A stretch of 60,072 bases of DNA, filler included, from Hausera hauseri (lineage: Eukaryota): the NCBI GenBank assembly GCA_046269625.1. It is 10 parts of 10 records of this genome, joined end to end, with 100 filler letters (N's around TTAATTAATTAA, not from the genome) between each part and the next. Parts side by side here need not be neighbours in the genome. Positions count along the whole stretch, not along the records: positions 8,525 to 13,505 come from JBJURY010371925.1; 9 more parts are not named here. The stretch is one strand, 5' to 3'. The translations under genes and the position numbers were made by a program. Under the pieces are notes generated by a model. It had not been told where the DNA came from, did no database searches, and worked only from the letters and a program-made list of their open reading frames with translations. Positions 1 through 50,960 of the stretch are shown here, piece after piece (the stretch's first letter is position 1; each line of letters starts with the position of its first letter).

Positions 1-901
1 TGTACTTTTCGATTTCTTTCTGTACTTCATGAGAATCCATACCGTTCTCTATCTGTTCCCAGGTGAGCATATGTCTGATGCTATTCAGATTATGTATATT
101 TCTGCGTGGAGCAATGATGCTCTTGAAGAGTATTTCACCTTTCTTGTCCGCTATCATTATTTCTACAGGTAAAGGGACTTGCATTCCATTGGATTTGTTA
201 CCGTAGGCAAAGGAGACGGCTAAGTATCTCGTGCTCTGAGCTTTACTGGTATACATAATGTTCGGTTCCCCTATCAGTTCCTCATCTGTTGGTTCTATTT
301 TGTACTTCAATGGGAGTAGATTCGGAAATTGTTTTTCTCGTCTAATAATTTCTATCATGCCCATATTTATCAACTCTTTGGCAATTATTCTTGTGTTCTT
401 AGAATCTATTGGGAAATTGATTTGACAAGATTCTTGTCCGTTTATGGTCTCCAAATTGTTCCTACGTCCTTTCAATCCCCTGAATACTAACATAATTTTC
501 CCAATTGCTAAATGTACGGTAATTCCGATATTGTCACCTGTCCAAACTGGAAATCTGAATGTGGTTTCGGAATTGAATATTTTGAAAGGAAGGATTGCCC
601 TGTTCCTTTGTTCGCCATATTTTAAATTATTGGGTATCTTGGTGACGTCGTTAATTCTATCCACTGGACGATCTAAATGTGCCAATATTTTATCATAGAA
701 AGAATAGCTCATGTTGTTTTCTGCTGTACTGAGTCTGAGTGTTGATCTTTTCTCATTTAATCGTTGAATTAGAATATTTCCGGGTATCTTAAATTCTTTG
801 TTTTCGTTACACTTAATTGGTTGATAGTTTGTGATTGTGCCGTGGTTTCCGAGTTCCGGCGCTTGATTAGATGAATTACCTAACAGATTTATTTTCGCCA
901 T
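1..901 (-). CDS. Open frame of at least 300 codons running off the window edge; last ~75 aa resemble the N-terminal half of a DEDDh (REX4/ISG20/DnaQ-like) exonuclease
   Basis: Manual translation from ATG at 901: MAKINLLGNSSNQAPEL...RYLAVSFAYGNKSNGMQVPLPVEIMIADKKGEILFKSIIAPRRNIHNLNSIRHMLTWEQIENGMDSHEVQKEIEKY, no stop before base 1. Absent from the ORF track because it has no stop in the window. Confidence 0.65.
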   Translation of the reverse strand, partial: MAKINLLGNSSNQAPELGNHGTITNYQPIKCNENKEFKIPGNILIQRLNEKRSTLRLSTAENNMSYSFYDKILAHLDRPVDRINDVTKIPNNLKYGEQRNRAILPFKIFNSETTFRFPVWTGDNIGITVHLAIGKIMLVFRGLKGRRNNLETINGQESCQINFPIDSKNTRIIAKELINMGMIEIIRREKQFPNLLPLKYKIEPTDEELIGEPNIMYTSKAQSTRYLAVSFAYGNKSNGMQVPLPVEIMIADKKGEILFKSIIAPRRNIHNLNSIRHMLTWEQIENGMDSHEVQKEIEKY

Positions 902-1112
902 TCTGCAATTGTACCAATGTTTTATAGTTCCCCAGGTTGGATGTGATTGGCCAATAAATGAATCTTCTTAACAAGTTAAATATCCCTTTCTGATTGGTTC
1001 TTAATTTGTAAAAAGTATAATACATCATGATTGGTCCGATAAGAGGAAGGATTGTGACTACTGAAGTTATGTCTAATTGTATTGGATGACGTAGGACCAA
1101 ATTTCTGAAGAT

Positions 1113-2936
1113 TCACAATGTTAGTATTGGCGCGAAGCAAAACACACTTTGCGTATTCTCATTTGGATCGGTTACAATGGGCTTATTGGTTGTCATATTA
1201 CTTATTTCGCTTATCTCCGTTCTATCATTTAAGGTAAAATGTGGCTCTGGTTTGATATATGTTTTATTATCTCGGATTACCGAATAATGAGATCTGTATA
1301 GCTTCCTCTTCTTACATTTGACTTTCTGTCCGAATGCGACTATTAAAATAACGATGATACCTAATGCTAACAAGATGAGAAATATCCACCAATATTGTGT
1401 AAGATACATTTCCGTAGTTATTGGCACGGATGTAGTTCTCTGCCAATTCCCATCTTCTTCATTGTAACGTATGTTTCTGTATCTATCTGCTGCAGGTAGT
1501 GTCTTTATGTCCAGAAGTTTAGAATTGTCATGAATTTTTATGTTCACTAAATAATTCGTGTCTGGGGTCAATTTTTCACAAAAATTCCGTTTGTTTGTAT
1601 TGTAATTGAAACTAATCTTCTCATGAGTACCTGTACATGTTATCAGGATACTCTGGTTATTTGGATTTTGTGCAAGTAGAATTTCAATCCGATTTACGTA
1701 TGGTGTTAACCTGACCTTTATTGGAAACTCTTTCATGAGTTTTCCATGAAACATGTGTTTGTTTATCGACTTCTGCATTACTATTTGCCCATTTCCTTGT
1801 AATTCTAATGTGAGTTTCCTTTTTGGCTTGTTTTGATTCTCTGCTCTTGATTTGCGTGGACTCCTTGTTGTTGAATTGTGTTGGCTCTCCGATTTTCCCC
1901 TATCCTTAAAAATGGAGGTCCGGGTAGGTGATGAATGTATAGCTATCCGAAGTGTAGTAAATGTGTTTGTAAGTGGAGGCGAGATCAGTCTCAATTGTGC
2001 CTGTGTGAGGGAGATAAAGATTGGTAGTTGTGATGAATGTATGCGTGTAGAAGGTTGTGTACCACGTCCAAAATACATATCGAAACGAATAATGTATCGA
2101 ATATCGGTGTGAAGAGTACAGCATACTTGCGGATGGGCTCCATTCAGATGGCATAGATGCGGTTGAGGCACAACGTGAGGGAAGGAGTCAAACCATATCT
2201 GAATTTCATATCCGAGGGGCAAAAGTTGTAAGGTTCGAAAGTTGATGCAGGAATGAGTCCGATGCACACCGATCATCACAAGATTATTCTTTAAGAATTG
2301 AGTAGTAAACCCATCGTGTAATGACGTAGGGGGGTTACCTAGAAAGTCCATGATATAATGCACTGGAACATGAATACTGAAATGAGGGTTCCATTTTGAA
2401 ATGTATTGCTCGTGACTAGACTTTTTAAGCAATATATAGTAAGAATATGACGTATCATATTCGAGTTGACTGCATGTCTGATTCTTTTTTTCAAAGATTG
2501 AACATGTGGTTGTTTCTATATCTGCTGAGGTAAAAACAATTGTAACTTCGTGTTGCAGGGGAACTGGTGAGTGTGTTTGGAGGCAAATGCTAGGTTCATC
2601 GACGTCGACGTGAGTAATGGTCGTGAGTTGAACCAAGTCGACATAGTCGTCCGAGGTTATTACCAGTTTCACAGAAAACGCTATAAGAAGTAATAAAACT
2701 ATACCAACGTATCTACCTGGAGTGAGGTGAACATGATAAGTAGCGGATTTGTGTGTATCCCGTTTTTGTTGCAGGGATAAAACAGCGACTTTGTTATCTA
2801 TAATTGTTGGAGACTCCAATTCTGTTTGTCTTATAAAGTCAGTGTATGAAGAGGGTGCTCTCATAACTCGTTGTACGGATACAGCTTCGTACTTGTCTGC
2901 ACCCTTTTGAATAAAGAGTCTGGGGACGAACATCAA
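1113..2936 (-). CDS. Integrase C-terminal tail continuing into a type I membrane protein (internal signal, Cys-containing ectodomain, FN3-like domain, TM, basic tail)
   Basis: 607-aa ORF. Hydrophobic GIVLLLLIAFSVKLVI (~2658-2708); FN3-like LTPDTNYLVNIK...IKTLP (~1495-1572); TM WWIFLILLALGIIVILIVAF (~1330-1392) followed by QKVKCKKRK. Confidence 0.7.
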   Translation of the reverse strand: MMFVPRLFIQKGADKYEAVSVQRVMRAPSSYTDFIRQTELESPTIIDNKVAVLSLQQKRDTHKSATYHVHLTPGRYVGIVLLLLIAFSVKLVITSDDYVDLVQLTTITHVDVDEPSICLQTHSPVPLQHEVTIVFTSADIETTTCSIFEKKNQTCSQLEYDTSYSYYILLKKSSHEQYISKWNPHFSIHVPVHYIMDFLGNPPTSLHDGFTTQFLKNNLVMIGVHRTHSCINFRTLQLLPLGYEIQIWFDSFPHVVPQPHLCHLNGAHPQVCCTLHTDIRYIIRFDMYFGRGTQPSTRIHSSQLPIFISLTQAQLRLISPPLTNTFTTLRIAIHSSPTRTSIFKDRGKSESQHNSTTRSPRKSRAENQNKPKRKLTLELQGNGQIVMQKSINKHMFHGKLMKEFPIKVRLTPYVNRIEILLAQNPNNQSILITCTGTHEKISFNYNTNKRNFCEKLTPDTNYLVNIKIHDNSKLLDIKTLPAADRYRNIRYNEEDGNWQRTTSVPITTEMYLTQYWWIFLILLALGIIVILIVAFGQKVKCKKRKLYRSHYSVIRDNKTYIKPEPHFTLNDRTEISEISNMTTNKPIVTDPNENTQSVFCFAPILTL

Positions 2937-5900
2937 CTACTTCATATGGTCCTTGACCAGTTCGTGTTAACTTTAGTGATTTGCTTTTCTTTGCGACTAG
3001 ATAATGAACCATTACATAATCGCCAACTTTGTAAATATGTGGGCGTGCTTTCTTGTTAAAATGTTTCTTATACCCAGCTTTGTACTTTTCTTCAAATTCT
3101 TTAGCCTCATGTTGAAAATATTCTAACCGTTTCAGTAGGTCTTGGTACTGTTCGTCCATGTGATCACTAATTTTTAAAGATGACGGTAGTAATTCGATGT
3201 CTAGTGGCAACAATGGCAAGCGCCCAAACATCAGTTCAAAGGGTGAATGGTTAGTGCTCTTCGTAGACGTAGTATTGACAGCAAAAGCAGTAGTTTTAAG
3301 GTGGAGATGCCAGTCCTTTTGATCGTGTGCAACCTTTGTTAAAAGTATGCCTTGGATTGTTCTCTTCATTCGTTCAATCATACCGTTACATTGCGGGTGG
3401 TAAGCAGCAGTAAGTAAATGTTTGCATTGAAATATTTTGGATAATTTTTCAAAAAATTCGCTAATAAAATAGGGCGCGCGATCAGTTAATAATTGTTTTG
3501 GTGTGCCTAGTACGGCTACTACCTCATAAAAATGCTTCGGCAACAGTGCTGCTAGTCATATTCTTTAATGGCACCAAGACGACATATCGCGAATAATAGT
3601 CCACAATTGACAGAATATATTTATATCCGGAATCAGACGCTTGAAAGGGACCGGATATGTCCATTGAACAAACTTCCATTGGTCTACGTGCTTCTGGTAG
3701 AGTCCCTAAGAAAGGTTTAGATCGAAATCCTCTATCTTTTCTTGTGGCACACATCTTACATAAGCGTACTCATCCTTCAATGTGTTTGTTCATCTGTGGC
3801 CAATAGTATTTCGCCGTTATTCGTTTTAATGTCTTATTCAGAGAAGGGTGGCCAGCTAAGTGAGAATCATGTTCTTGTAGCATGACAGCTTTGATTGCTA
3901 CTGACGGTACTATTACTAGTTTCCGCTCGCCAACTTTTAGTTGTAGAATTCCATTTTCTATTTTTAACTGTTCTTTGTGTTTATCATAGAATTTCTTAAT
4001 ATGACTTGATACTTGATCGGCCGACTGTTCATTGATCAGTTGTTTAATCTGTGCAATAAGTGTATCCTGTTTTTGTAGTGTTTCGATATTTCGAACCTGA
4101 ATCAATCGTTGCTCCTGCAACATCTCATTGATAACTGTCTCTTAGTTGTTTATCTTTTTCATTATCAGGTTTGTGAGTTGCTGCGATTATTCTTTCGTAG
4201 GGTAAACGGGAAATTGCATATGCGTCTATATTTTCCTTTCCTGGACGATATCGATATTCAATGTCATAATTCAAAAGCTCTAACTTCCATCTTTGGAGTC
4301 GGCTTGATACATGTCGATTATCAGATCGAAATGATAGTAAGGCCTTATGATCAGTGAATATGATGATTTTGTGTCCATAAATGTAATATTCGTAGTGTCG
4401 CAGTCCGTCTTTGATAGCTAACAACTCCAGTTCTGTTGTAGAGTATTTTCTTTCAGCACTATTTAAACTACGTCCGCCATATGCTATGACGTGTTCCGTC
4501 TTTTCTTCTGGACTTTGTTGGGTTAATATATAACTAATGGCATTAATACTGGCATCTGTTTTAAGAATGAAAGGTAAGTTAAAATCTGGGTATCTCAATA
4601 TCGGTGCTGATACTAATCTTTTCTTAATTTCGTCAAAAGCATTCTGATTTTCTTCACTCCATTCCCATTTTTGGTCCTTCTTTAACAATTTGTATTGTGG
4701 TTGATTGATTTCTGCAAAATTTTCGATGAAAGTGGAGTAAAATCCTCCTAAACCTAACCAAACTTTCATTTCATGTACATTGGTTGGTAAGGGATATTCT
4801 AATATTTTAGATATCAAGTCTCGACTAGTGGATATTCCTTTGTTTGAAACTATGAATCCAAGATATCGGACTTCGGTTTTACACCATTCACATTTCTTTG
4901 GATTCAGCTTTAATTTTGCAAGTCTGATTCGATCAAATACTTCTCTTAACTCTACTAGATGTGCTGACCATGTTGTTGAAGCGATTAAAATGTCATCAAT
5001 ATACGATAGGCCCCAAACTCCTTTAAGTACTAAGCGAATAAATTCTTGAAAGAATGCCGGCGCAGTCTTTAATCCGAATGGCATGCGGGTAAATTGATAC
5101 ACTCCGGTATGTGTCTTGAATGCGGTTTTCCATCGGTCCTCTTCTGCTACTGGAATTTGCCAGAATCCACTTTGCAAATCGAGAGTTGTAAAATAATTAC
5201 AATCTTTCAATTCATCTATGATATCGCGTATTCTAGGTATCGGGTAAGCATGATTCGCTAAATGCTTGTTTAACGTAACACAATTTACACATAACCGACG
5301 TTTCGTGGTATTAGCTTTCTTTGCCATAACTATAGGGGATGGCCAAGGTGACTGACTAGATTCAATGATGCCTTTGTCCAACATGGTTTGGATTTGTTCC
5401 TCAACTTCCTTTTGGAGTGCCTTTGGAGGCGGATACCATTTGGGTACTGGTTGTCGTAAAAGATCTGTTTCTTTCCCTGTCAGAGGATCAATCATAAATG
5501 ACAGCTTAAACTCAACCAAATCAGTCCGTCCAATATCTGTTTCATCTTTAGCAAATATATCAATATATTCAAAGATGAGGTCCGAGAGATTTTTTGGTAT
5601 TCATCTGATAAATTTTTCTTCGCTTTTGCGAGAATAAGATCAAGCATATCTTCAACAATTTCATTTGTAGACAGAGCTGCAAGTTTACCGTCATATTCTT
5701 TATGTAGAATAGTTTCGAGAGCATGTCCAAGCTTCGTTTTAGTAAATATCGTGACATATCTCGGAGTTGGATTCAATATTTCAATAGGGATTGTTCCGCC
5801 GATTACATTTACACAATAATGCGGTAGTATAAGTCTGTTCAGGAACGTTCTTGGTATAAATTCAATGACACTGTTGTCGGGAAACATTGTTCTGGCGTGT

Positions 5901-6976
5901 ACTACCATTCTAGAATATGGTGGTATCTTCTCGACATGTCCTATCCAAATGTCTTTATTTTCATAACTTGGCGGAAAATCCTCGTTATTAGGGCAAATTG
6001 ATCCTGATTGTAAATTTATGTGAACTCCTTCCAATCTTCTCAATACGTTCATGCCTATAATGCATCTGGGATCTAAATTTGTCATGACCTCGAAAATTAC
6101 TTTAACCTTTTGTCCGCAGATGATTGGTTCACTTTTCCAATGTCCGTATGGTTTGCTGCATTGCTGGAAAGCTGAGATTGTACCTAGAGTGTCTTTTGCT
6201 GCTAATTTTATCTGTGACTGAAGTTCGTCCGGGATTGCGTGTTTTGCTATCAGTGATATATTGGCGCCTGTATCTACCATGGCGTTTAGATCAAAGGTGC
6301 CAAAGTGAACGGTTGTATGTGGTCGATTATCTCTAATTAACTCTAAAAATGTCAATACATCATTATGATCGTCGATATGAGGTTCCATCAAGGTGTAGCT
6401 GGATGCACAATAATGTCTTGTTCCGTTAGGTAATATGACTGTTAAGCTTTCCAAAGATAGTGTATCCTTTTCTATTTCCTTTGTCTTTGATTTAAGTTCA
6501 GCCAAATCTGGATAGCAACTTAGGTGTCTAACGGTCTGTTGAGTACTATCTGATTCTGTTGTTGCCATTATTCGGTTAGACTGACTTTCTACAGATTTAT
6601 TTGTTCGGTGATAAGTCACTGGCGGCATCATATCAAGCTTAGGAGATAGTGGCAAGTTTATTCGGTTTCGTTCTATGTTTTGTGTAACAATAGACTGAAG
6701 TATTTCGTCTTGAGAAATTTTTGGTAGGTTACGCAATTTTATATATTCTTCTCTTTTTGTATATTGGTCTTCCAACTTCGGTAGATTGAAATTTGACATT
6801 TCATAAGGTGCACCTGGTACTTGGTGTTTATTCTTTGGTTTTTGTTTAATCTTTTCCTTTGATTTCATTAGTTTAAATAATTTCTTTTTCTTTTCTTGTA
6901 TATTGGATGTATTAGTTCTGTACCATGGTTTCCTAAATATGTTTTTGGTTTGCGATTCACTTACATATGAGCCCAT
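2839..6976 (-). pseudogene. pol: Gypsy pol (linker-PR-RT-RNaseH-IN) split by a few frameshifts and a stop
   Basis: VDTGANIS; LDLQSGFWQIPV, MPFGLKTAPAFFQ, YIDDILI; TDAS, YSTTELELLA, TDHKAL; integrase HHCC (HDSHLAGH...CKMC), MDISGP, TDRAPYF, YHPQCNGMIER, GPY. Confidence 0.95.
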
Positions 6977-7607
6977 ATTGGTGCTGTTTATATAGTTTTT
7001 TGAAAATGTTCAAATCTGGACATCAATAATTAAGACCTGCAGTGGGAAATTTGTATTGAATGAGATTCTGCATAACAGAATTTACAAGGTTTGACCAGAG
7101 TGAGTGCGAATGAATCCATCCTTCTCATCTTAAGATTATTTTTGTTTAAATGTCTGCCATAAAAGGTGGTGGGTGATTACTTCAAGGAATTATAGGTTTT
7201 CATCTGTAGTATGTTTCAATCCCTTTTACATACAGCACTTTTATATACAGCACTTTTATGTTCTAACTAGTGACCTCATTTTTAACACTAGACCTTTGTC
7301 TCTAGCTCTTAAAGGGAACTGAAACCAGTTTACAGGAGCTGCCCTGTTACGCTTTTGGAACCAAAAACTCAAAACTGGTAATGTGAGCAGATAAGTCCCA
7401 CCTACTTTTCGGCATGCAACCCAAACAGGAAATAACTAATTATTGTTGAACATGTTTAAAAAAAACATCTGAACATACAGCAGCAATTAGAGGAAACTCT
7501 GGTTCATTTTCCGAACTTAATAATCTCAATATTGCCCATAAAAAATGCCCTCATTAACAATGATGATTTCAAGACGGCAGTTTTTATACATGAGAAAATT
7601 GAAACTA

Positions 7608-8424
7608 CACTGTTAAAAATTCCCGTAAAATTATGGTCACTGACCATATAATTTGACGGGAAACGACCTCCATAGCAAAAAATGGTCTACGACCGTAAAA
7701 ACCCTTAGATCCCTATGAGCTTGAATGTATACTTCGCTGCCAGCTTTGAATTACGGTCGCTGGTACTAAAATAGCCACATTCGCTTAAGTCACGTGGTGT
7801 CATCTGTGAGCGAGGATCCGAGATCAGTCGCCTCGCCGCCATTAAAACAGCATTGTTGGACGTTTTTTGAGGTAAGTTTCTTTATTTATTATTCGTTAGT
7901 AAGTTTTGTTATTAGTATACTTTGAGTATAGAATTGAGGATGTTATTTCTCAGTCTGTACTGAAATATACGTCATAGAATATATATACGGTTTATATATA
8001 TTTATTTTTTTCTCTTTAGAAAAAAAAGTGTTTACACCACCTAAAAGTTAAGCATGAGCATGAGAGTGTTTGCAGGTGTGTGATGCACATCGGGGTTCTT
8101 TCATGTAGTAAATACACTGGTATTAAGTGAATCAGATTTAAACACAATGTGTGTCCAGGTGATGAGCGATTCAGGCTTACGGTTCTTCCCGGGTGCAGTT
8201 CACAAAGTGCCATCGGGATCACACAGAAGAGAGTTTTGTCTCCACTTTGACTCTAATACATTGTAATTTGATATTTTGGCACAATAACCTGCATTCTTTT
8301 TTCAGATGTCTTTTGAGAACTAACTGGGCCTTTGTAACTGTGTACACATGGATGCAGCCAGATACACACACATGCTCATGAATCACACAGCTTGATTGTA
8401 TATTGGATGAGGACGGCTTTCATT
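7608..8424 (+). mobile_element. Possible CACTA/CMC-like DNA transposon end followed by spliced exon fragments
   Basis: TA|CACTGTTAAAAA start, internal palindrome TTCCCGTAAAATTATGGTCA-C-TGACCATATAATTTGACGGGAA (~7620-7662), splice-like GAG|GTAAGT (~7872) and polypyrimidine-AG (~8019, ~8305). Only one end seen. Confidence 0.3.
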
Positions 8425-8524: not shown

Positions 8525-8810
8525 TTTTTGATAAACTGATTGTTGGTTTAAAGGAAATTGTTGTAACAGAATCTGTTTTTTTCCTAACGAACTTGCTTCA
8601 TTTGCAAAATCAATAAAAATTTTTCTATATTTTCTTAAAACATTTCCTTGCTTCCAATATTAACACGACCTTTTAAAATAATTTTCAAAACTTCAAAAAA
8701 TCCTGCATAACAAATTCCGGCATGGAATGCAACAATTCTCATCTAAATCTGTTTGGCGAATTGATTGTTGCTTTGAAGTATGGTAAACTTCTCTCTAATC
8801 GTGTCATCAT
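8525..8810 (-). pseudogene. Small Maverick/Polinton accessory ORF remnant
   Basis: MMTRLERSLPYFKATINSPNRFR*ELLHSMPEFVMQDFFEVLKIILKGRVNIG resembles a small helical ORF I associate with animal Mavericks; lies downstream of the ATPase on the same strand. Confidence 0.4.
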
Positions 8811-9210
8811 ACAACTTTCACTTCCACCAATTTTGTTTCTTTACAGTCTAAACCATCGTTTAGGTAACCTAAACTTTTTTCGTGTATGATCTTTTTAACA
8901 ACTTTTCGTCTCTGTTTTTGTCTCTGTTTTCGTCCCAGTTTGATTATTACTGTTTTGAATTTCATTATTTAGATTTTCATGTCTCATAACTTTGATTATC
9001 AACCTTAGGAAAGTGATTAGCAGCTTGCTCCATTAGATAATTAAGCCCACTGCTTATGTTTTCTACAGCTTTTGTGAATTTGTGAGGCTTGCGTAGAAGG
9101 AAGTACAAAGGTAATGAAAGAAACACGCCTTTTAATTCTTTCGACATTTTTCGACGTCTAGTTTGATTTTTTCATTTGGCCTTTCTAGCCATTTGTTTTA
9201 TCTATTTTTG

Positions 9211-9432
9211 TTATATTTGTTTATACACTGTTATTCCTTTCTGATTAAATATATCTGTTTTAACCCGTTCATCATCTGGACATTGTTGTGTGAAGTCGAT
9301 AAAAATATACCCATGTGCATTTTTCGTTTAATCATGAAATGCATCAAGAAAATATTTCTATCATGTGGATAAGCTTGTCGAGCAACAAAATCAATTACAG
9401 TTTGATCACGAGGATTTTTAAATAAAAGTCCT
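9211..9432 (-). pseudogene. Maverick/Polinton packaging ATPase, C-terminal fragment
   Basis: LFKNPRDQTVIDFVARQAYPHD/KYFLDAFHD*TKNAHGYIFIDFTQQCPDDERVKTDIF follows the FKNPRD..ARQ.YP..GYL.ID..RTNIF pattern; one frameshift and one stop. Confidence 0.8.
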
Positions 9433-10094
9433 GAATGAACTGTACAAGTTAACACAATTACTCGTAAAAATGGCGGAGATTAGCAATGAGAAGGTGAGAC
9501 AATTGATGCCTCAAATACGACAGGCTGAAGAAACGTGCATTAGAAATAAACAAAGAGCAGTAAAGTTAGACGAACTAATAAATGAGCTCGAAATTTATAG
9601 GAACAAGTATGCTTTTACTGAGTCAGAAATTAACAGGAAGATAGTTTATACAAAGATGGCAAAGGAATGTAATTATCGAGGTAACCGACTATCATCAAAA
9701 GGAACTCATTCCTGCTAACGAAGTAGGCAAACTATTAAAACTGATCCAGTACGCTTCTGGAAACGGAATAGATTTCCGGACCACACAGATGAAAGAAATA
9801 CAACCGAGATTAAAGGACATTCGAGAGAATGTGCAAAGAATGAATACAGCACTAGCAGACAATGGACTTCCAGAAGTTGGAATGGGATGCTTACTTAGAT
9901 GTCATGTCGAAAATCCGATGACTCCAGTACGGTTAAATGAAACAGAAATGTATCCGCCGAACAGAAAATTATACGTGGAGACGCTCCTGAATTCGACTCT
10001 AAATTATCTTGTGAGAACGCAGTTTACAGCGCGGTGCCGAAACTTTTGATAAGGAAACATGCTAAAATCTTAAGGGCTAAAACCTGAGGTAACG

Positions 10095-10305
10095 ATGAAA
10101 ATAAAGATATCATCTGAGTGGATGGATGAAAGACAATGTGAGTTAACCACATTCCTGTGTGAGGGATGTAAGAGAATGGTTGATAAATAATGGTAGAATA
10201 AATGAACTATAGACTCTACTTTAGAGGTAGAATATTAGACGACTTAGAACCGTTAATAGACGTTGGAATTATACTTGATGAAACAAACCGAATAGTAGTA
10301 ACAGT
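10095..10305 (+). pseudogene. Ubiquitin-like domain within the retroelement coding region
   Basis: MKIKISSEW...YRLYFRGRILDDLEPLIDVGI...IVVTV aligns with ubiquitin [20 protein letters not shown]; no C-terminal GG. Confidence 0.6.
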
Positions 10306-10965
10306 AGCTAATGAGCAGACTAAAGAAGCCACACGTAAGACTAAGACAGCACAATGCGTAGGACAAATTATGGGAGTCCGAGACGCCGCCATGTATTTTG
10401 AGTATCTGCAAACGGATGAAGACAGGGAACAGTATGACAAGAATTTAGTACCAATAAGTGAAATGACAACGACGGTTTCAAAACAGAAATGCCCTGTAGG
10501 TAGGCTCAGGAAAATATGAGATGTTTACTATAACGGAGAATTGATTAAAGAATTGAGACAGATGTCAATTTCTATCTTCAGCGCAGACAACGAAGAATTA
10601 AGCGAGTTAATGAAAAATCTAATACGCATCGTAAATTATTCAAGCCTCCATGGTGACGTATTAGACGAAAAAGAAAAAGCGATATTTAACGCAGCAAAAA
10701 CGATGAAGATCATGGTGAAGAATGCAATAGAAGAGCTAAGGAAAGTATTAGTGTACTTAGCTATTAAGAGAAATCCCAGTAAAGAGAATGAATTTAATAG
10801 AGCTACAAGCTTGATAAGAAAAACAGCTAGAAAACTGCCTCGAGAAATAAACTGGCTACGACTATTCGATAAAAAAGAAGATAAACGATCCAGCAATAGT
10901 AACCGACTCGAAGACGTGTTACAAAATCTCACAACAACGGAAAATAACAACCATAGAAAGGAGTC

Positions 10966-12625
10966 CAATTGGCTAATCAACTTACTCACCTTGATGATAT
11001 TGGTAAAACAGATAGGTGCCCTTACCATCTATGACTGCAATAAATTTAAACTTGGACAGAAATACTGCTTAATGGATTTAGAGGCGTGCGAAGATGCCAG
11101 ATCGCATAAACTAGAGAAAGGAGAAAAGTTATTTTCTATACCAACAACAAGAATTGATATCATTGGATGGAATGAAATGTATGTTACGGCGATCATGTAG
11201 CATTTTCCACTCTGGGTTAATACACGGACATTCGCCGATAATTAAACCGACGACTCACCTAATTCCAATGAACTTAGAACGACAACATTGTAAAGAGGCA
11301 AGGGAAACAGGAAGATTAAAGTGGGATGGTATGGAACTGGAAATTCAACCTGGAAAGATAATTAGAGCATATAAAGTAGTGGCTGGGAGGCTAGATATGT
11401 ATAACGGACAGTGTAATGAAAATCAAAAATGCCATTTACAAGACGGAACATGTGCTTTTAGAAGTTCTGTTATAATAAGGGAACCCCCTTCAGGAAGAAA
11501 TTGTAATTTTATCAAAATCAAGGAATTAAAATTTAATGAAACTACCGGAAACTGATATGTGGATAAATCTGATAGCAACTCAAGAACAGGCGAGGACGTG
11601 GCAGAACATCCTACACTTACTATTTTGACCGCCGATCCGCATGGACTAAAATTTTTTAAAAGGGAGATGATCCCACTTTGCGAAATTGTGATGTTCGCCA
11701 TTAATTATGAAGCAGAAACGGAAATAAGTGCAAATACTTACAACCTTGAGACGCAAGGTATTCGTATTGAAGATTACCTAAAAAATCAAGACGATTTTTA
11801 CTACAGAGTGCAAATCGGAATTACCGAATTAAATCACAAAATGATAAAGAATAATTGTAAATTGGATATGGAAATCATGAGGACAAAATTAGCTCTTATC
11901 TACGCTAACCATGATTTAGCATCGCCAATAATTCTGATGAGAGAAGGAATTTTCGGTCGAGTTACCGGTGAAGTCTTATTGACTTATGAATGTGAGAAAC
12001 GAGACGTACCAATCAATGTCGAAGAAAAACGGTGCGTACAAGAACTCCCCCTTATTTATCAGAACACTCAATGCTTAGCCATGCCGCTTACTAGAGTATT
12101 ATTAGATAATGCTACCGAACCAACGATCCTTAAGGAATGTAAGGCAAGTTTAGTAGAACTCATGTAGCGAAACGGATTGGGTAAGCTTGCCAAATGAAGG
12201 TATTAATGTCGCTCGAAATTCAGTTAACAGGAACTAACCTAGTAAAAGGGATAACGGACGACAAATTCCAAGCACCTCATCAAAAGGTATTATAGACCAA
12301 AGGAAATTGATGCGTTCAGACAATTTCGTGCCTTTCCGCGACAACGAACGCATACATTAAACCGAGCCATAGCCTAAGTAGTACATGATACTCGATATCA
12401 AGCTAAATTACCATTACCAACGACTAACCACGGAAATACTCTATAAAATATTAGGAAGATTTGTAATTTTTGGACAAGCTGCATCTGGATTTTTAACCAT
12501 TTACTTTTTAGTCCAATTAATTAAAGCGGTAATCCAAGCTATTATAAACTGATATGAAATATTCACATTGACAGGATTCTCCTGCAAAATTTTTACCGCA
12601 ATCATCACACCCTTCGGAAAGATGC
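10966..12625 (+). pseudogene. env: Chuvirus-like envelope glycoprotein (presumed class III fusogen), frameshifted
   Basis: Signal NWLINLLTLMILVKQIGA then LTIYDC...LMDLEAC (11021); VAGRLDMYNGQC; GEVLLTYEC..CVQELPL..PLTRVL; Y.PKEIDAFRQFRAFP..TLN; C-terminal FGQAASGFLTIYFLVQLIKAVIQAIIN*YEIFTLTGFS. All match, in order, the chuviral G motifs as I recall them. Confidence 0.85.
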
Positions 12626-13289
12626 TTAAGGCATACGAAGAAAATCGATGGATAAATGTTGTAGAACGCCATGTCGGATATTATAATCGTAAACGACGAG
12701 GCAGACCCTCGATTCTCAATAAACGCAAAAATAAAAAGTCAATAATGCGGAAAGACGAATCAGATGATGACGAGCCTAAGGGAGGAGAAGTGAATTCCAG
12801 AATGAAGACGCACAAGATGTACTCAGTGATTAACTCACCGTTACCTATCATGCCGCCAGCAGCACCAATATATGAGGAGTGCAACCACGAATAGATCGTA
12901 TCATGTGGGTCCGAAATTTATCAAAGTCCCATAAACTATGAAGACCGTTACGAAAAGACAAAACAATATGTAGTACTACGGAAAATGAATGTTATCAACC
13001 AAGGGCAAACCTAAAACAACCACGAAATATTGTACTCAAAAAGAATACAGCGTAACATAGAATCGAAATAAACGATCTGGGAAAACCCAAAATTGTGTTT
13101 ACGAACTCACGAAACGCATATCGACAGTCGCGCCAATGAGATGGTGAATAATAATTTATACCCCAGTGGAGAATTAAGCCAATTGAGGCAAGATACTATT
13201 TCATCTCCAGAGATAACAATAAATGGACACAGAGTCTCTACTATAAAACGGTCAAAGGCAGTGTCAAATTGTTTTGGAACAGTAGTAGA

Positions 13290-13505
13290 AAAGAGGCCCT
13301 TCGCTAAAATACACATCGAAGATTAGGAAATGTATGCACTAATCGACACAAGATCAGAAAAATCATTCGTAAAATATGAATCCATACCAACCACTTTACG
13401 AGACCAACTATGTCCACCGCATCATCAGACCCAGGTAGCGTAGGAGCATTTGGGCAAGTATCGAAGCCGACATTTAACTGGACTGCTACCGTCCATATGA
13501 TGGGC
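13290..13505 (+). pseudogene. Retropepsin (aspartic protease) fragment
   Basis: KRPFAKIHIED*EMYALIDTRSEKSFV (DTR at 13345-13353, one base from DTG) ...GSVGAFGQVSKPTFNW. Confidence 0.85.
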
Positions 13506-13605: not shown

Positions 13606-14306
13606 TAGCGCGTTTGCAAAAGTTCATGAACTCGTTGCAGCTGTTCCGAATAGAGGTTAGCATCTATTGCGTGATCCTCTGGAATGAGTTTTAAGTGCAG
13701 TACTCCCTCAAAATTCCACCAGACGTCCTGCATAATCTTCCTTTCAAATCGCCTTCTTCGAACAACCGGGACTGCTGATTGACTGGGCATCAACCATTTA
13801 TTATCCTTGTAGGGATTGCTTAAATAAATCCATTTTTCATCCACAGTCACAAATCGTTTCCAGAATCGGGCATCCTGAGTATTGGCAAGGAGTTGTTGAC
13901 AGATGTCCATACGACGTTGAGCATTCGCTGGAGTTAATTCATGTATAATTTCTCGATAGCGTCTGTTGCGGAACCAAAGTTGCTGGAGATGGCGATAAAT
14001 GGTGGTATAATGGGGACCAAGTTCTTTTGACAATCTGCGTGTACTGGTGGCTGGCTGGTTTTTCGCTGTTTGTATCAGTGCTGTGTTGTCAAATGTGGAT
14101 GGGCATCCGGATCGGGTTTTGTCTTCGAGGCTTGTGTCAACTTCATTGAAGCGCTTGAACCATTCTGCTGCTGTAGTCTTGTTGACGACCCTTTCACCTT
14201 TCACTGCACAAACTACCTCGGCTGCAGTTCTTATGCTGAGCCCTTTTTTCCAATAGTGACGCAATTTTTTCATCACACATTGCGATACAGTAGATCGAAT
14301 AAGCAA
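13606..14306 (-). mobile_element. mariner transposase fragment, cut by scaffold end
   Basis: WFKRF..DTSLEDKTRSGCPS, IIHELT (WVPHEL-like), VTVDEKWIY, VWWNFEGVLH, YSEQLQRV. Confidence 0.9.
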
Positions 14307-14529
14307 CAGCTGCAGTGACTTGCGTGGAAAATTCTAGAAATAAGGATGTAATTGATGCATTTTTTTCTTGAATNNNNNNNNNNTAAGTGATTCGTTATCT
14401 AATTTATTCTATGTCTGAACCTACATCTTGTTCATAATCCTCGTTAATCATGTCCATATCTTAAAATCTCAAGTAATCAGTTTTCTAAATTTGGCGAGTT
14501 ACACGTTATTGAACATGACTATACATATA

Positions 14530-16146
14530 CAGTAGTGGCGGAAAATCTACTACCTTTTAGTTTTCTGCGCATATTTTCGTTTAAACTCAATGTATTTGGT
14601 TGCAATTTAAATATGCTATCTATTAAGCCGCGGAGAGTACTGTACAGAGTGTCATTAAACTTCTGCAAGCGATTTTCAAAATAGAATAGGTTTATTTATT
14701 TTTTTATCAAATAAAGTACAGTCAGCAGATTGAATTCAATATTGCAAAATGCTGCAAACGTAACATAAAGTGTAACTTTGCACACATGTATTGTGAATCT
14801 AGTACTTTGTAGGAAAGACTCGAGCATCAACTGCAGCTTGGCATTTTCGGGACATGGAGTCGATTAGGTTGTCAATGACGCTCTGAAGGATTTTCTTCCA
14901 CTCCTTCTCAAGCTGACGGAACTTCTCATCCACATTTTTGGCATGAACACTTTTCGGGCGACGGTCTAACATCCCAGATATGTTCAATGGGATTGAGGTC
15001 CGGGGATAGGCTTGGCCACTTCATAACCTTCATTCTCCGTTGGTCGAACCATTTGCGCACTAGGCCTGATGAGTGTTTAGGATTACGTTCGTGCTGGAAA
15101 ATGAACCAACGTTCAAAAACATGACGTGCATATGGCAGCATGACCTTATCGAGGATTTCCACATACTCCTCTTTTTTCATGATGCCACTGATATGATGCA
15201 GAGGACCAACTTCGCGAGCACTGAAGCAACCCCACATCATAACTGAACCTCCTCCATGCTTGACAGCAGGAATCTGGTACTTTGGATCGAAGCCTTTGCC
15301 TTTAGGACGACCATCACTTCCAAACAGCATGAACTTTTACTCGTCGCTCCAGAGGGCCTCCTACTATTGCTAAGGAGTCCACGTGAGGTGGTCATGTGCA
15401 AACACTAGTCGAGCTCTTCTGTTCTTCAAAGAAACCAGCGGTTTTATGGTGAGGCATCGTCCCTGGAGTCCAGCTGTCTGTAGACGACGTCGAACAGTTC
15501 GGATGGACACTTTAACTCCATCGTTCTCAGCTAGTTTACTGGAAATTTCAACTGCTGTCAGCAGGGGGTTGCTTCACGACAGTCGGAGCAGTGTTCTGTC
15601 TACCAATGTGTTGGTGATACGTGGTCTTCCAAGGTTCTTCTTCTTCTCAACTTTTCCCCTTATCTATACTCTCTTCAAAAGCTTCGATATTGTTGTTCCT
15701 GAGACACTGAACTGCTTAGCAAGCTTCCGCTTCATACCTTAACGCCGTCCATTGAAGATCGCCTCCATTACTTCAGTCGACAGGTTATTGCTACCAAAGT
15801 TACGGGCCATACGTCCAAGAATAACACAAAAATAACAAAATTATATCCAACCAAATCACAACAAAACTGTTTTAAATAACTATATTTGATGACACCAACG
15901 TTTCGATTAACAATATGTAATCTTTCTCAAATCTTTATGGCTTAATTAGTTTACTTGGATATCTGTTATTTTCAGCCAATGAAAACAATGAAAATTACTC
16001 TACCATACCGGAAAGTTATATAATAATAAGGTTGAAACTTTCAATTTTGATTCAACTTAAATAAAATTAATTAACGGGAATAAAATTGAGTTTAAACGAA
16101 AATATTCGCAAAAAACTAAAATGTGATAGATTTTCGGCCGCTAATG
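14530..16146 (-). mobile_element. Full-length degenerate Tc1-family transposon with ~60-bp imperfect TIRs and TA target duplication
   Basis: TA|CAGTAGTGGCGGAAAATCTA...TTTAAACTCAAT versus ATTGAGTTTAAA...TAGATTTTCGGCCGCTAATG|TA. Confidence 0.92.
14799..15810 (-). pseudogene. Tc1 transposase pseudogene
   Basis: WSDE, VKHGGGSVMMWGCF, QHERNPKH (degenerate QDND), WPSLSPDLNPIEHIW, PTKY*; stops and frameshifts. Confidence 0.92.
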
Positions 16147-26958: not shown

Positions 26959-28743
26959 AAATCATTCATTAAGGAGAATTATAAAGTTAGGGATTATTTC
27001 CATTTCACGTGCACATATCGAGGTGCAGCATACAACATGTATAAAATATTTACATATGTGCCTATAGTGTTCCATAATCTCAGTGGTTATGATTCCCATT
27101 TCATTGTTTGAAACTGAGCAGCATTGAATGAAACACTGATATGATCCGTAATAGTGAGGAAAAATACATCACATTTACCAAGCATGTTGGAAAAATCAGG
27201 CTTTGTTTCATAGACAGTTTCCGTTTTATGTCGTCTTCACTTGAAAGTTTAGTGAAGAACCTCCCAGCAAAAGAACTCAAGGAGACTAAGCGGTTCTTTC
27301 TCATTGCATTTGATCTATTCAAAAGGAAAGGCGTGTTTCCTTATGACTATATAACATCATGGGAAACACTGGATGAGGCCTCATTGCCGGCCAAGAAGGA
27401 TTTTTACAACATCCTCTCTGATTGCAATATCAGTGATATGGATGACCAGCATGCTCAAAATGTCTGGCATGCATTTCAATGACGAATATTAGCAGAATAC
27501 AGCGACATATACCTAAAGACGGACTTGCTGCTTCTGACGGATGTCTTTAAGAGTTTCAAGGATGCTACGATAAAGAGCCATGCATTGGATCCGGCTCATT
27601 TCTTTACGGCTTCATAGATGAGTTTGGCAGCTGTGCTGAGATATACAGGTGTCAGGCTACAGATCATAAAGGATTACTACATGATCCTCATAATTGAGAG
27701 AGGCATTATAGGCGGAATATGCCAGGCCATCCACCGGTATAGTGAGGCAAACAACAAGGAATCCTCATATTTATCATACCTGGATGCCAACAACTTGTAT
27801 GGATAAGAAATGAGCGCCCCATTGCATATGATAACTTCAAGTTGGTTGAGCATCCCGAAGGCATCCTTATACTGGACCTGGATTCCAATGGAGATACAAG
27901 CTATATACTGGAAGTAGATATGGAATATCCGGCTTCTATTTACAAAAGGAATGAGCATCTGCCTTTCCTTCCTGAGAACAAAAGACCTCCGAATGGGGGA
28001 TTAGAAAAGTTACTGTGCCATCTTCGAAATCGGGAAAGACATGTAGTCCACTACATAAATCTCCAGCAAGCGGTCAGAAATGGACTCCGTGTTATTAAGA
28101 TCCATTGGACCCTGCAGTTCAGCCAGTTCATGTGGCTGCAGCCATACATAGATCTCAATACCAAGCTACGGACCAATGCCAAGAACGACTTTGCGAAGGA
28201 TCAGTTCAAGCTATACATCAACAGCGTTTTTGGCAAGACCATAGAAAATATCCGCAACAGGGTTAACATCGAACTGGTCTCTGAGTGGAAGCGGGCATAG
28301 AAGCTCATTGCCAAACCAAATTTCCACAGTAGCATCATATGTGCGGAGAACTTGGTCAGCATCCATATGCTGAAAACATCCTTGCAATTCAACAAGCCCA
28401 TATATGTGGGTATAGCAAAAATGGACCTGTCAAAGACCCTGATGTACAAATTCCACTATGACATCATGGTCCCTAAGTTTGAGTCCATGCAGCTGATGGA
28501 TATGGATACTGATAGTTTCATCTATCAGATCTATACAGATGATATTTTAAGGACTTTGTCCAATTGGCACATCACATGAATATCTCGGATTATCCGAAGG
28601 AACATTCCAACTATTCAATAGCCAACAAAAAGGTCCTTGGGAAATTCAAAGACGAGGTGAATGGAGCAATCATCTCGAGATTTGCAGCTCTTAGGTCCAA
28701 AATGTATGCCATTGATATATTTGGCCAAGTAACGAAGAGGGCT
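26959..28743 (+). pseudogene. polB: Maverick/Polinton protein-primed DNA polymerase B (exonuclease and polymerase domains), disrupted and 3'-truncated
   Basis: VRDYFHFTCTYRGAA, FHNLSGYDSHF, FIDSFRFMSSSL, KGVFPYDY, YLDANNLYG, KLYINSVFGKT, MDTDSFIY, LGKFKDE, LRSKMYA. Confidence 0.95.
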
Positions 28744-28744
28744 G

Positions 28745-29460
28745 TGTCACCGCGTCGGATTTATAGTTGTACCCGATCCCCCGCCGCGAAAATGTCACAA
28801 GATGACCTTCTCACACATGAACGGAAGAAAGTTTTGTTATTCCCAAATCTGTATCAATCGATTTAGTCAGCTCATCCCTGCAAAATTCTCAACCTTTTGT
28901 TATCCGTTATCAGAAACCTGATTCATTCATCAGGCCTACCGATGAAAATTTTATTTTGAAAAACATCGGCGAATTTCAAGACAACGAAAGATTTGTTTGT
29001 ATCATTTGAAAATTGGAAATCAGGTACTACATACAGCTTCACGGTTTTTGCTCCAAACATTCTTGGAAATTCATCTAAACCAAAGGAGTCATATGAATCA
29101 ACATTGCGACCAGATTTTAAAGATTTCAAATTAAATTCCATCGAAAATGGATTCAATCACAAAGTTAATGTTTCATGGACTTTCGAGGTTCGCCGGAACT
29201 GTTCGCATTACTTCACCGTAAGTTACAAAATCTCTGGTAAAAACTCTCGTACAAATACAACAAACAATACAAATTTGTTATTAAATGAATTGAACACGAA
29301 CGAGGTTTACAACGTCACAGTCAGACCAGAATTAAGAATAAAAACAGAGAACAATGAAAAGTTTGGTCGACCACAATTTCAAATATTTTATACAGGAAAG
29401 CAACTCATTAGAATCACAAATGTCAGATTAAATAATTCTCTCAGTAATCAAATAGAGACA
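28745..29460 (+). pseudogene. Fibronectin type III repeats (host surface-protein fragment)
   Basis: VPDPP.., NWKSGTTYSFTVFAPNILGNS, VNVSW...FTVSYK...LNELNTNEVYNVTVRP. Confidence 0.7.
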
Positions 29461-29779
29461 ATTTCATGGATTTCCTTGAAGAAGATATTTTGGCAATTTT
29501 CAATTATTTGGAAGTTTGTTTCGTCAAAAGCAAAACTTATAAATTCAATTTTTATATCATCATTAAATTAATTCTGTTTTATACAATTTTTTATTTAATT
29601 TTATACTCAAAAGATCGTCATGAAGTACGAAAACGAAAGACGCTTGGAAAATGATAATTATTATTCTGATGACGAAAGAGGCGGATACGGAAATATGTCG
29701 TCAGAACAAAAAGAAGCAGGATTGCATCTTATTCGTGCGGTACGCTATTGAAATTGAATATTATAAAAGCAGCCCATTT

Positions 29780-46900: not shown

Positions 46901-49900
46901 CATTCGTTCTTTCGTTCTTTCGTTCGTTCTTTCAATCCTTCCTTCCTTCTTTCATTCGTTCGTTCTTTCATTCGTTCATTAGTTCCTTTGCTCGTTCGTT
47001 CGTTCTTTCTTTCGATCGCTCGATGGATCGTTCTTTTATTCGTTCCTTCGTCCGTTCATTCTTTCTTCCTTTCGCTCGATCGATTGTTCTTTCTTTCGTT
47101 CCTTCGTTCCTTCTTTCTTTCCTCCCTTCGTGAGTTCGTTCTTTCTTCCGTTCGTTCATTCGTGACTTCGTTTCTTCGTTCTTTCGTTCGTTCTTTTGTT
47201 CGTTTTTTTGTTCGTTCTTTCGTTTCTTCGTGAGTTCGTTCCTTCGTGAGTTCGTTCATTCGTGAGTTCCTCTTTCTTTCATTCTTTCCTTCTTTCCTTC
47301 TTTCGTTCGTTCATTTGTTCATTCTTTCGTTCTTTCCTTCGTTCTTTCGTTCTTTCGTTTCTTCGTTCCTTCGTTCCTTCCTTCGTTCTTTCATTCCTTC
47401 ATTAGTTCGTTTGTTCTTTCGTTCCTTCCTTCGTTCTTTTGTTCATTCGTTCGTTCGTTCATTCGATCGTTCCTTCGTTCGTTCCTTTGTTTGTTCCTGC
47501 ATTCGTTCGTTCGTTCTCTCATTCGTTCGTTCGTTCGATCTCTTATTCATTCGTTTGTTTGTTCGTTCGTTCGTTCTCTCGTTCGTTCCTTCGTTCTTTC
47601 TTTCGTTCGCTCGATCGATTGTTTTTTCTTTCGTTCCCTTGTTCTTTCTTTCTTTCGTTCGTTCATAGTTTCATTCGTTCTTTCGTTCCTTCGTTCGTTG
47701 GTTCATCCGTTCGTTTGTTCGTTCTTTCGTTCGTTCGTTTCTTCGTTCGTGCGTTCGTTCGTTCGTTCGTTCTTCCGTTCGTTCTCTCGATCGTTCGTTC
47801 TTTCGTTTTTTTGTTCGTTGGTTCATCCGTTCGTTCGTTCGTTCTTTCGTTCGTTCGTTTCTTCGTTCGTTCGTTCGTTCTTTCTTTCGTTCTTTCGTTC
47901 TATCATACGTTCGTTCGTTCGTCCGTTTTTTCATTCTTTCCTTCGTTATTTCTTTCTTTCCTTCGATCGTTCGTTCTTTCCCTCGTTCCCTCGTTCGTTC
48001 CTTCGCTCGTTCGTTCGTTGTGTCATTCGCTTTTTCGTTCTTTCGTTCGTTCCTTCGTTCGTCCGTTCGTTCTTTCGTTCGTTCCTTCATTCCTTTGTTC
48101 GTTTGTGAGTTCGTACTTTCTTTTATTCCTTCCTTCTTTCATTCCTTCGTACGTTCTTTCTTTCGTTCATTCGTTCCTTCTTTCGTTCTTTCGTTCTTTC
48201 ATTCGTTCGCTCGTTCGATCATTCGTTCACTCGTTCTTTCGTTCATTCGTGAGTTCCTTCTTTCGTTCATTCGTTCCTTCTTTCGTTCTTTCGTTCTTTC
48301 ATTCGTTCGCTCGTTCGATCATTCGTTCATTCGTTCGTTCGTTCGTTCATTCTTTCGATCGTTCCTTCGTTATTTGGTTCTTTCTTTCTTTCCTTCCTTC
48401 GGTCTTTCTTTCGTTCTTTCATTCCTTCATTCGTTCGTTTGTTCGCTCGTTCCTTCCTCCGTTCTTTTGTTCATTCGTTCGTTCGTCCTTTCGAACGTTC
48501 CTTCGTTCGTTCCTTTGATCCTTCCTTCATTCGTTCGTTCGTTCGTTCTTTCCTTCGTTCGTTTGTTCGTCCGTTTGTTCTTTCTTTCGTACGTTCGTGC
48601 GCTACTTCCTTCCTTCGTTCGTTCGTTCGTCTATTTTTCCTTCTTTCCTTTGTTCATTCGTTCTTTCGTTCGTTCGTTCGTTTGTTCGTTCGTTCGTTCG
48701 TTCGTTCCTTCTTTCGTTGGTTCATCCGTTCGTTCGTTCGTTCTTTCGTTCGTTCGTTTCTTCGTTCGTTCGTTCGTTCGTTCGTTCGTTCCTTCTTTCG
48801 TTGGTTCATCCGTTCGTTCGTTCCTTCTTTCGTTTGTTCGTTCGGTCGTTCGTTCCTTCGTTCGTTCGTTCGTTCGTACGTTCCTTCGTTCCTTCGCTCA
48901 TTCTTTCGATCGTTCGTTTGCTCCTTCCTTCCTTCGTTCTTTCGATCGTCCTTTATTTCGTTCTTTCTTTTGTTCATTCGTTCTTTCATTCGTTCGGTCT
49001 GTCGTTCGTGAGTTCGTTTCTTCGTTCGTTCGTGCGTTCTTTCGTTCATTCGTGACTTCGTTCCTTCCTTCATTCTTTCTTTAGATTACTCGTTCTTTCG
49101 TTCCTTCGTCCATTCGTTCGTTCGTTCGTTCGTTCGTTCCTTCTTTCATTCCTTCATTCGTTCATTTGTTCGTTCGTTCGTTCGTTCGTTCTTTTGTTCG
49201 TTCGTTCGTCCGTTCTTTCGTTCTTTCCTTTGTTCATTCGTTCTTTCGTTCATTCTTGAGTTCGTTCTTTCGTTAATTTGTTCCTTCTTTCCTTCTTTCG
49301 TTCGTTCCTTCGATCGTTCGTTCGTTCCTTCAATCGTTCCTTCGTTCGTTTGTTCGTTCGTTCCTTTTTTCCTTCGTACTTTCGTGCGCTCCTTCCTTCC
49401 TTCGTTCGTTCGTTCGTCCTTTATTTCGTTCTTTCCTTTGTTCATTCCTTCTTTCGTTCATTCGGTCGTTCGTTCGTGAGTTCGTGAGTTCGTGTGTTCG
49501 ATCCTACGTTTGTTCCTTCGTTCATTCTTTTGTTCGTTCTTTTCTTTGTTCTTTATTTCGTTCGTTCAATCGTTCGTTCTTTCGTTCCTTCGTTCCTTTC
49601 TTCATGAGTTCGTTCGCTCGTCCTTCATTCGTTCGATCTTTCGTTCCTTCGTTCCTTCGTTCGGTCGTCCGTTCTTTCGTTCTTTCCTTTGTTCATTTGT
49701 TCTTTCGTTCCTTCGTTTGTTCCTTCGTTCCTTCCATCGTCTGTTCGTTCCTTCAATCGTTCTTTCGTTTTTTCGTTCGTTCGTTCTTTCCTTCGTTCCC
49801 TCGTTCGTTCCTTCGCTCGTTCGTTCGTTGTGTCATTCGCTTTTTCGTTCTTTCGTTCGTTCTTTCCCTCGTTCCCTCGTTCGTTCCTTCGTTCGTCCGT

Positions 49901-50192
49901 TCGTTCTTTCGTTCGTTTTTTCGTTCCTTCCTTCCTTCGTTCTTTCGCTGTTTCGTTCGTTCTTTCGTTTGTTCGTTCTTTCATTCTTTCGTTCGTTCCT
50001 TTATTCCTTCGTTCGTTTGTGAGTTCGTACTTTCTTTCATTCGTTCCTTCTTTCATTCCTTCGTTCTTTCATTCGTTTGCTCGTTCGATTATTCGTTCAC
50101 TCGTTCTTTCGTTCCTTCGTGAGTTCCTTCTTTCGTTCATTCGTTCCTTCTTTCGTTCTTTCGTTCTTTCATTCGTTCGCTCGTTCGATCAT
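43963..50192. repeat. Degenerate tetranucleotide tract: (CGTC)n then (TTCG/TTCT/TTCC)n, with an internal N gap at 44222-44409
   Basis: Directly visible; strongly pyrimidine-rich on the plus strand. Confidence 0.98.
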
Positions 50193-50292: not shown

Positions 50293-50960
50293 TCTAACTA
50301 AAAGTTTAATGCCTACTGTAAACCACAATAGGTCAAGTAGCTATTCTACAAAGAAGATTCCAACAACCTGGAGAAACTGTCACTCATTATTCTTACGCTT
50401 TATCAAAACTAGTAAAAGATTACGTCAACACTGTTAAGACCCAAATCTTAATTAAAAATCCTAATGCAAAAGAAGATGAATTAAAGATTGAGACAGATAT
50501 TCACCTATTAATTCAATTTTTGAAGGGTGTCAGAAAAGACATCAAAACAGATATTCTAAAGAGAATCTGGCTAACATTCAATGAAGCAGTGCGAGAAGCA
50601 CAGAATCTTGGAGATTATGTAGGCCCTATAAGAATGAACCATCTTTCAAATATAATAAAAGATTTGGTAATCAAAACAATAACTCAAATAACCAACAACA
50701 AAGTCAACAAAACCAATCTAAACTTCAAAATGTTAATAATCATCAGCAACATAGATCCCAGCAAAATCAGAACGCATATGACAATTCAAATAATAGCTCA
50801 TATTCAATAGAAAATAATTCTGGTAAAAAATATAACAAAAACAATAACAATTCATCTAACCAATATCAACAAAAAAGTCGAATTGATGTCAATAGAAACG
50901 GTGCACACATAGTTTGCAGAAGATGCGAACAGACTGGTCATAATTCCATAAACTGCATTG
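50293..50960 (+). pseudogene. gag: Retrotransposon gag remnant
   Basis: QFLKGVRKDIK...TFNEAVREAQ, an N/Q-rich stretch, and knuckle CRRCEQTGHNSINC (~50915-50956). Confidence 0.7.

Follow-up and report, generated by a model that had tools for sequence, protein, structure and literature searches.

Does a chuvirus-like fusion glycoprotein (G) lying ahead of a Gypsy-type protease (PR) belong with it to one retroelement, and is such an order (env before pol) new? The question is raised by one piece of the window, i.e. the whole stretch of DNA analysed (60,072 nucleotides, from Hausera hauseri), in which separate assembly pieces are joined by artificial spacers (44 N, TTAATTAATTAA, 44 N). The feature found at 8525-13505 is very probably what remains of a Ty3/Gypsy LTR retroelement with env before pol (Burro-like; GAG-ENV-POL gB-type errantiviruses), a partial copy that is now dead. 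The env-before-pol order and the single reading frame are both already in print and are not new. Judged by about 30% identity to the nearest G, the copy is a divergent branch of this known architecture.

The piece stops at 13505 inside the protease, where an artificial spacer (N/TTAATTAATTAA/N) follows. Because the contig ends there, the piece lacks RT, RNase H, integrase and the 3' LTR. Since RT, RNase H, integrase and LTRs are absent from the contig, the Ty3/Gypsy membership of the copy is drawn from relatives at about 30% identity. The copy is dead and can make none of the products proposed below. It matters little in itself because order and single frame are published and because it is decayed and truncated. 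Two leads are worth keeping: the YPx(n)L motif conserved in the tail of the fusogen, which gives a concrete budding hypothesis, and the missing Gag.

Organisation of the element

Table 1. Features of the element-bearing piece. Positions are those of the window. The features that follow the whole piece are sorted by position.
Feature	Position	Strand	Evidence and remarks
Element-bearing piece	8525..13505	.	Contig of about 5 kb; N44-TTAATTAATTAA-N44 spacers at both ends; adjoining pieces not physically linked
AT-rich, stop-rich 5' region	8525..9330	+	Stops in all frames (8526-9330)
N-terminal region, two open pieces	9431..10049	+	Coiled-coil-like by eye, then helical
Ubiquitin-like domain, C-terminal half	10202..10312	+	Weak: Pfam ubiquitin E 0.042; relatives' profile iE 0.0007
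Helical domain in frame with the signal peptide	10520..10960	+	Position of the relatives' Bcl-2-like domain; low-confidence four-helix model
Internal signal-peptide-like hydrophobic segment	10961..11020	+	Hydropathy 1.83 over 15 residues from 10985; layout as in relatives
Decayed ectodomain, Monjiviricetes-type (class III, gB-like) fusion glycoprotein	11021..12468	+	PF24664, relatives' profile; internal stops
Membrane anchor and conserved G C-terminal region	12469..12669	+	PF24664 positions 532-601; hydropathy 2.03 over 19 residues from 12490
Cytosolic tail/linker, in frame with G and PR	12670..13290	+	LYPSGEL (YPx3L) at 13156-13176
Retropepsin-type protease, N-terminal part	13291..13505	+	Degenerate motif at 13345; cut by the contig end

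The glycoprotein

The motifs quoted in the preliminary description lie where it had placed them: a signal-like stretch from about 10961, LTIYDC at 11021-11038, FGQAASG from 12469, a stop at 12550 and DTR at 13345. The signal peptide and the C-terminal anchor of G are both present by hydropathy and position. PF24664 matches 11556-12164 (E 1e-13, 50.6 bits) and the anchor region (E 1.9e-12, 46.4 bits), both above the cut-off of 27; its match to 11115-11552 is weak (E 0.003) and below the cut-off. A profile built from the G of 13 relatives matches in three frames, at its positions 5-158, 197-536 and 548-634 (of 663). A match split in this way implies two or more frame changes in the ectodomain, near 11.1 and 12.4 kb. 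The ectodomain also lacks about 38 profile positions near 11420.

The fold was modelled for a relative, P0016 (pLDDT 78; 32 sequences in an alignment that included one window piece). The best matches of this model are herpesvirus gB in the PDB (E 1e-13, TM 0.34/0.42) and chuvirus-type glycoproteins in BFVD (E 1e-43). The window G is a chuvirus-like class III fusogen, the family being matched on the copy and the gB-like fold being predicted for the relative. The earlier claim of a chuvirus-like, class III glycoprotein thus stands by two matches above the cut-off and by the gB-like model, and the structural outcome expected at the time (chuviral G or class III) was obtained, on P0016. No sequence relative of the G alignment was found in the PDB (one match, at E 0.34). 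A word-indexed protein search with the G piece gave nothing among 287 candidates; the HMMER search did find relatives.

Copies in sequencing data

Run X1 (15.5 million contigs) contains 47% of the sampled words and may be the assembly's own source. In this run, 11,436 contigs lie on the piece 8525-13505 at 85% likeness or more and cover 30/30 bins, the 5' part included; no contig of the run spans the whole piece. The matching contigs are mostly below 95% identity, and transitions account for 391 of the 562 differing places. Among the 40 differences listed, three hit stop codons of the reading frame shared by G and PR; those stops are therefore not common to all copies. These counts, from one run whose depth is not a copy number, indicate that the family is abundant and diverged. 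At 8526-8857 and 9190-9521 the read depth rises well over the level of the coding part, which points to an LTR segment or to some other repeat of high copy number.

Region upstream of the glycoprotein

The frame of the signal peptide continues upstream (10202-11200, with one stop at 10517), a continuation that the earlier reader had missed. Since 10202-10960 shares the signal peptide's frame, G lies within a longer ORF and is not the start of the polyprotein.

The ubiquitin-like stretch at 10202-10312 was spotted by eye before the profile search. The profile that matches it, made from 9 relatives, finds there its best match of 60 frames; a longer profile gives iE 0.003. Weak as the match is, the half-domain occupies the position where Burro-like relatives carry such a domain. 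A profile of the helical region ahead of the ubiquitin-like domain gave no match. Two candidate identities were considered. An RIH-domain for 9645-10046, a weak lead, was not accepted (Atlas score 0.94, 156/256 features shared, recognition below threshold). For 10520-10960, a Bcl-2 identity found no match by two profiles, by pairwise search (best E 0.29) or by Atlas search; the single-sequence model (pLDDT 59) matched generic helical bundles only, with a best Z of 9.4.

Gag was not detected in the 2.4 kb upstream of G by a profile from 12 relatives (best iE 1.8). The same profile detects gag in other pieces of the window (iE 2e-7 and 0.001). In relatives that have a ubiquitin-like domain, the zinc knuckle lies about 210-490 aa ahead of that domain; the relatives' spacing would put it at about 8.8-9.6 kb in the window. 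A simple motif scan of the piece for an LTR or a primer-binding site, of an element of which only one end could lie there, gave nothing convincing.

The copy could belong to a Gag-less derivative, whose ORF would start near 9.3-9.5 kb with non-capsid domains and run through G into Pol, a helper capsid being used or gag lying elsewhere in the element. This reading is unlikely. It agrees with the silence of the gag profile in this piece as against its matches elsewhere in the window, with the stops found in all frames at 8526-9330, and with the coverage of the whole piece, 5' part included, by many diverged contigs of one run. It is weakened by its source, a single decayed copy on a 5-kb contig, and by the nature of gag, which is poorly conserved and may, in such a copy, be deleted, interrupted by a repeat (see the two depth peaks) or placed past the contig edge. 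Moreover, the relatives with apparently Gag-less N-termini look truncated (P0002 compared with P0071, its longer, 95% identical twin).

Relatives and phylogeny

A phmmer search of 1.84 billion representatives, with the unbroken piece 11556-12164 as query, yielded 66 homologs, 21 of them at E<=1e-10. Eleven of these 21 extend at least 100 residues past G; the protease comes next in 11/11, and five also have RT. In the remaining 10 the protein stops inside G or shortly past it. Of the full 66 homologs, 19 extend that far past G, 11 of them with PR, and RT is found before G in none. A second search used the G of relative P0002 and was limited to proteins of 1570-4997 aa, a limit that favours polyproteins. 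It gave 17 proteins, with PR after G in 17/17, RT in 13 and a zinc knuckle before G in 13.

The order of domains is given here for two relatives. P0076: knuckles, ubiquitin/Rad60-SLD, G, ankyrins, PR, RT, RNase H, integrase. P0074: Ty3 capsid, knuckles, Bcl-2, G, PR, ankyrins. In the unbroken relatives a single ORF holds G, PR, RT, RNase H and integrase, and for this reason the ancestral G-linker-PR-Pol polyprotein that had been proposed is upheld in its continuity; its supposed beginning at G is not, the frame reaching further upstream. Among the families of the nearest relatives are RVT_1, RT_RNaseH, Integrase_H2C2 and either Ty3 capsid or Retrotrans_gag; none specific to Pao is listed for them. 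Public assemblies commonly contain this Burro-like architecture (25 G-PR polyproteins were compared).

Further features of the relatives were recorded. Many have several aspartyl-protease domains per ORF (P0002, P0010, P0068 and others; seven in P0068). A second membrane-anchored protein, after the integrase, ends most of them. The database entry for P0003 (HBK71150.1), a full env-pol retroelement polyprotein, assigns it to a Flavobacteriaceae MAG; the record is probably a misbinned eukaryotic contig.

Profiles of 17 polyprotein G regions and of 17 stand-alone G proteins were compared. All four window G pieces score higher with the polyprotein-G profile (165/57/56/42 bits) than with the stand-alone-G profile (103/35/35/7). 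In the G tree (55 rows; rows not spanning the core were left out), the window G lies within a 100/99 group of 38 rows, together with every G-PR polyprotein. Six stand-alone G proteins also belong to this group; the one named chu-like virus glycoprotein lies outside it. The branch of the window G is long (2.26) and its exact place is unsure; no starred set of at most half of the rows holds it.

This lineage might instead have acquired its G recently and separately from a chuvirus and have converged on the same order. Such a capture could account for the long branch and would accord with the GAG-ENV-POL elements not being one clade on the POL tree (in the account of PMC13524379). It is improbable: every window G piece is nearer to retroelement G than to stand-alone G, and the tree places the window G with the polyproteins.

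The six stand-alone G proteins nested in the retroelement G group are P0033, P0038, P0046, P0063, P0064 and P0066. Two of the six are on contigs of 7-10 kb, and P0046 has 75 cluster members, mostly on contigs of about 10 kb. No relative was found in the viral contigs scanned with P0046. If these six belong to RNA viruses, there may have been more than one transfer of G between viruses and retroelements, a point left unsure by the long branches.

Shared frame from the anchor to the protease

Over the 311 codons between the anchor (12421) and the protease motif, one frame is interrupted by 5 stops (12550, 12892, 13012, 13069 and 13324), against 28 and 19 in the other two. Dinucleotide shuffles have a mean of 20.5 stops per frame; 0/2000 reach 5 or fewer, even as the best of three frames. 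In the linker alone (12694-13260), 3 stops are found, vs 14 and 12 in the other frames (best-of-three P 0.0025). Env is in frame with PR in this copy, as one ancestral ORF with five point stops. The preliminary description was right on this point: one frame is kept from 12421 to DTR at 13345, broken only by point stops.

The protease match is weak (RVP E 0.024; family profile iE 0.002). The canonical triad is found in 19/19 relatives; the window copy departs from it, with a DTR motif. The distance from anchor to protease is 291 aa in the window and 140-383 aa in the relatives, with one at 661 (21 measurable).

The tail between anchor and protease contains a YPx(1-3)L/I motif in 15 of 21 non-redundant relatives (25 G-PR polyproteins minus 4 near-duplicates), with 2.75 expected from shuffles. 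The motif is found in 1/18 control stretches ahead of G and in 5/13 stand-alone G tails. This conservation is a lead only, because the pattern was picked after it had been seen and because kin share motifs and are not independent. YPXL late domains are linked to ALIX. By analogy, the YPx(n)L of the tail may recruit ALIX/ESCRT for budding. YPXL motifs are described as ESCRT-recruiting late domains in PMC5834213. Among the papers listed by a search on late-domain motifs in Ty3 elements, none has a title on env-before-pol elements; the motif may still have been reported.

Two independent insertions would have left a chuvirus glycoprotein fossil by chance ahead of an unrelated Gypsy protease. The chuvirus-like character of G, the frequent flanking of Jingchuvirales G fossils by Gypsy fragments (as given in PMC10084718) and the absence of a run X1 contig spanning the whole piece are compatible with this. 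The frame shared across the G-PR junction, the nearest homologs, which are G-PR polyproteins, the conserved tail motif and the ubiquitin-like domain upstream, as in relatives, all speak against it. It is very improbable and already largely refuted. A BEL/Pao element of the Anakin kind is scarcely credible: chuvirus G capture is documented in Pao elements (PMC7642597), as the preliminary description held, but the nearest relatives have Ty3/Gypsy-type families with none specific to Pao among those listed, and in Roo, Tas and Cer-7 the env-like gene is downstream of the polyprotein (PMC7642597).

Other pieces of the window

In the other pieces there are satellites and fragments of Gypsy, mariner, Tc1 and polB type, as would suit a eukaryote rich in repeats, probably an animal.

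1-8424 (minus strand): a separate piece with Gypsy PR-RT-RNase H-integrase. After the integrase comes an ORF of 536 aa that has a membrane anchor and weakly resembles the membrane protein found past the integrase in P0003 (E 0.04). A further ORF is exonuclease-like by eye, with no Pfam match. The pre-protease region resembles the tail of the window G (BLASTP E 3e-6) and has a YPDL motif. Membership of this Gypsy element in the same family was not confirmed: no G was found by profile, and its RT branch is 2.56 in a poorly separated tree.

50322-52403 (plus strand): an ORF that resembles gag (profile iE 2e-7) and has a zinc knuckle. Less than 100 bases past it lies an open frame of 221 codons corresponding to the N-terminal part of ARMC9 (CTLH_Armc9 E 5e-41), possibly a copy of a host gene caught in an LTR element. 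A search with this ARMC9-like ORF gave a single fungal protein, at 38%, which is uninformative as to the host.

43900-50190: a long satellite with a 4-base unit. At about 35800-42800, the ORF list shows longer tandem repeats of a degenerate kind. 13609-15336 and 27132-29571: fragments of mariner and Tc1-type transposases and of a protein-primed polB, and an ORF that contains FN3. No gene was found by a tRNA gene search.

Proposed polyprotein

Order, frame and family are the observed part; the mechanism proposed here is drawn from the anatomy of the element and from general membrane-protein biogenesis. The ancestral polyprotein would have comprised N-terminal domains including a ubiquitin-like one, an internal signal peptide, the fusogen ectodomain, the anchor, a cytosolic tail and PR, followed, as in relatives, by RT-RNase H-integrase. 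The signal peptide would thread G into the ER lumen, and signal peptidase would free the N-terminus of G. The membrane anchor would return the chain to the cytosol and make G a type I membrane fusogen; with the chain so returned, Pol would begin tethered to the inner side of the envelope protein. Pol would then be packaged via the G tail, in place of a Gag-Pol frameshift, until the protease of the element cuts it free, and the YPx(n)L of the tail may drive budding through ALIX/ESCRT.

A wider reading joins these steps: a high-copy, Gag-less env-before-pol branch, possibly in animals outside flatworms, nematodes and bryozoans, with captured host-like N-terminal domains, Pol tethered to the fusogen tail and budding driven by YPxL through ESCRT. 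Taken as a whole it is unlikely. If such a Gag-less branch is real, the element would move in particles that have an envelope and either a borrowed capsid or none.

Comparison with known systems

Jingchuvirales/Monjiviricetes glycoproteins (PF24664) share the sequence family and the fold of the window G. They are stand-alone viral genes, and the named chu-like virus G falls outside the group of the window G. Nematode endogenous retroviruses reportedly have a continuous gag-env-pro-pol ORF. Their ENV/POL order is flipped (Sacco et al. 2022, as paraphrased in PMC13524379), and one nematode ENV row of PMC13524379 looks, by eye, more distant from the window G than the flatworm rows do. Anakin, a Pao element (PMC7642597), has a glycoprotein of the same superfamily inside an LTR retrotransposon; its backbone is BEL/Pao, whereas the relatives of the window copy have Ty3/Gypsy-type domains with G before PR. 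Troyka (PMC12440569) was dropped from the comparison, being, as far as that source goes, unrelated to env order.

GAG-ENV-POL Ty3/Gypsy elements with a gB-type env are described in Nematoda, Bryozoa and Platyhelminthes (PMC13524379, Chary and Hayashi), with up to 215 copies in Schmidtea, and are not monophyletic on the POL tree of that source. Like the window copy, these errantiviruses have a class III, gB-like env before pol in a Ty3/gypsy element, and the Schmidtea ENV rows (configuration C1a) share motifs, by eye only, with P0002 and the window G (PMC13524379). They are intact and multi-copy and have GAG; the window copy is a decayed fragment in which Gag was not detected.

A close likeness in description is to Burro/GYPSM1, giant planarian Gypsy-like LTR retrotransposons in which env is in frame between gag and pol (PMC6431247). 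The order had been thought undescribed for Ty3/Gypsy elements, a view refuted by Burro (PMC6431247) and by the GAG-ENV-POL elements (PMC13524379). Burro is over 25 kb, has a planarian host and carries a Bcl-2-like domain directly before env (PMC6431247); the window copy is on a contig of about 5 kb, is likened to it by description, and shows no Gag, Bcl-2, MATH, BIR or ankyrin domain. It is called Burro-like and not Burro because Gag with CCHC knuckles was not found where relatives place it. Burro and the window copy have in common a Mononegavirus-like env in frame directly before PR, a ubiquitin/SUMO-like domain upstream of env (a weak match in the window) and, apparently, a very high copy number, decayed fragments of Burro being known from a related host (PMC6431247). 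The Burro domain set given in PMC6431247 is present in P0068, P0074 and P0076, the nearest relatives of the window copy.
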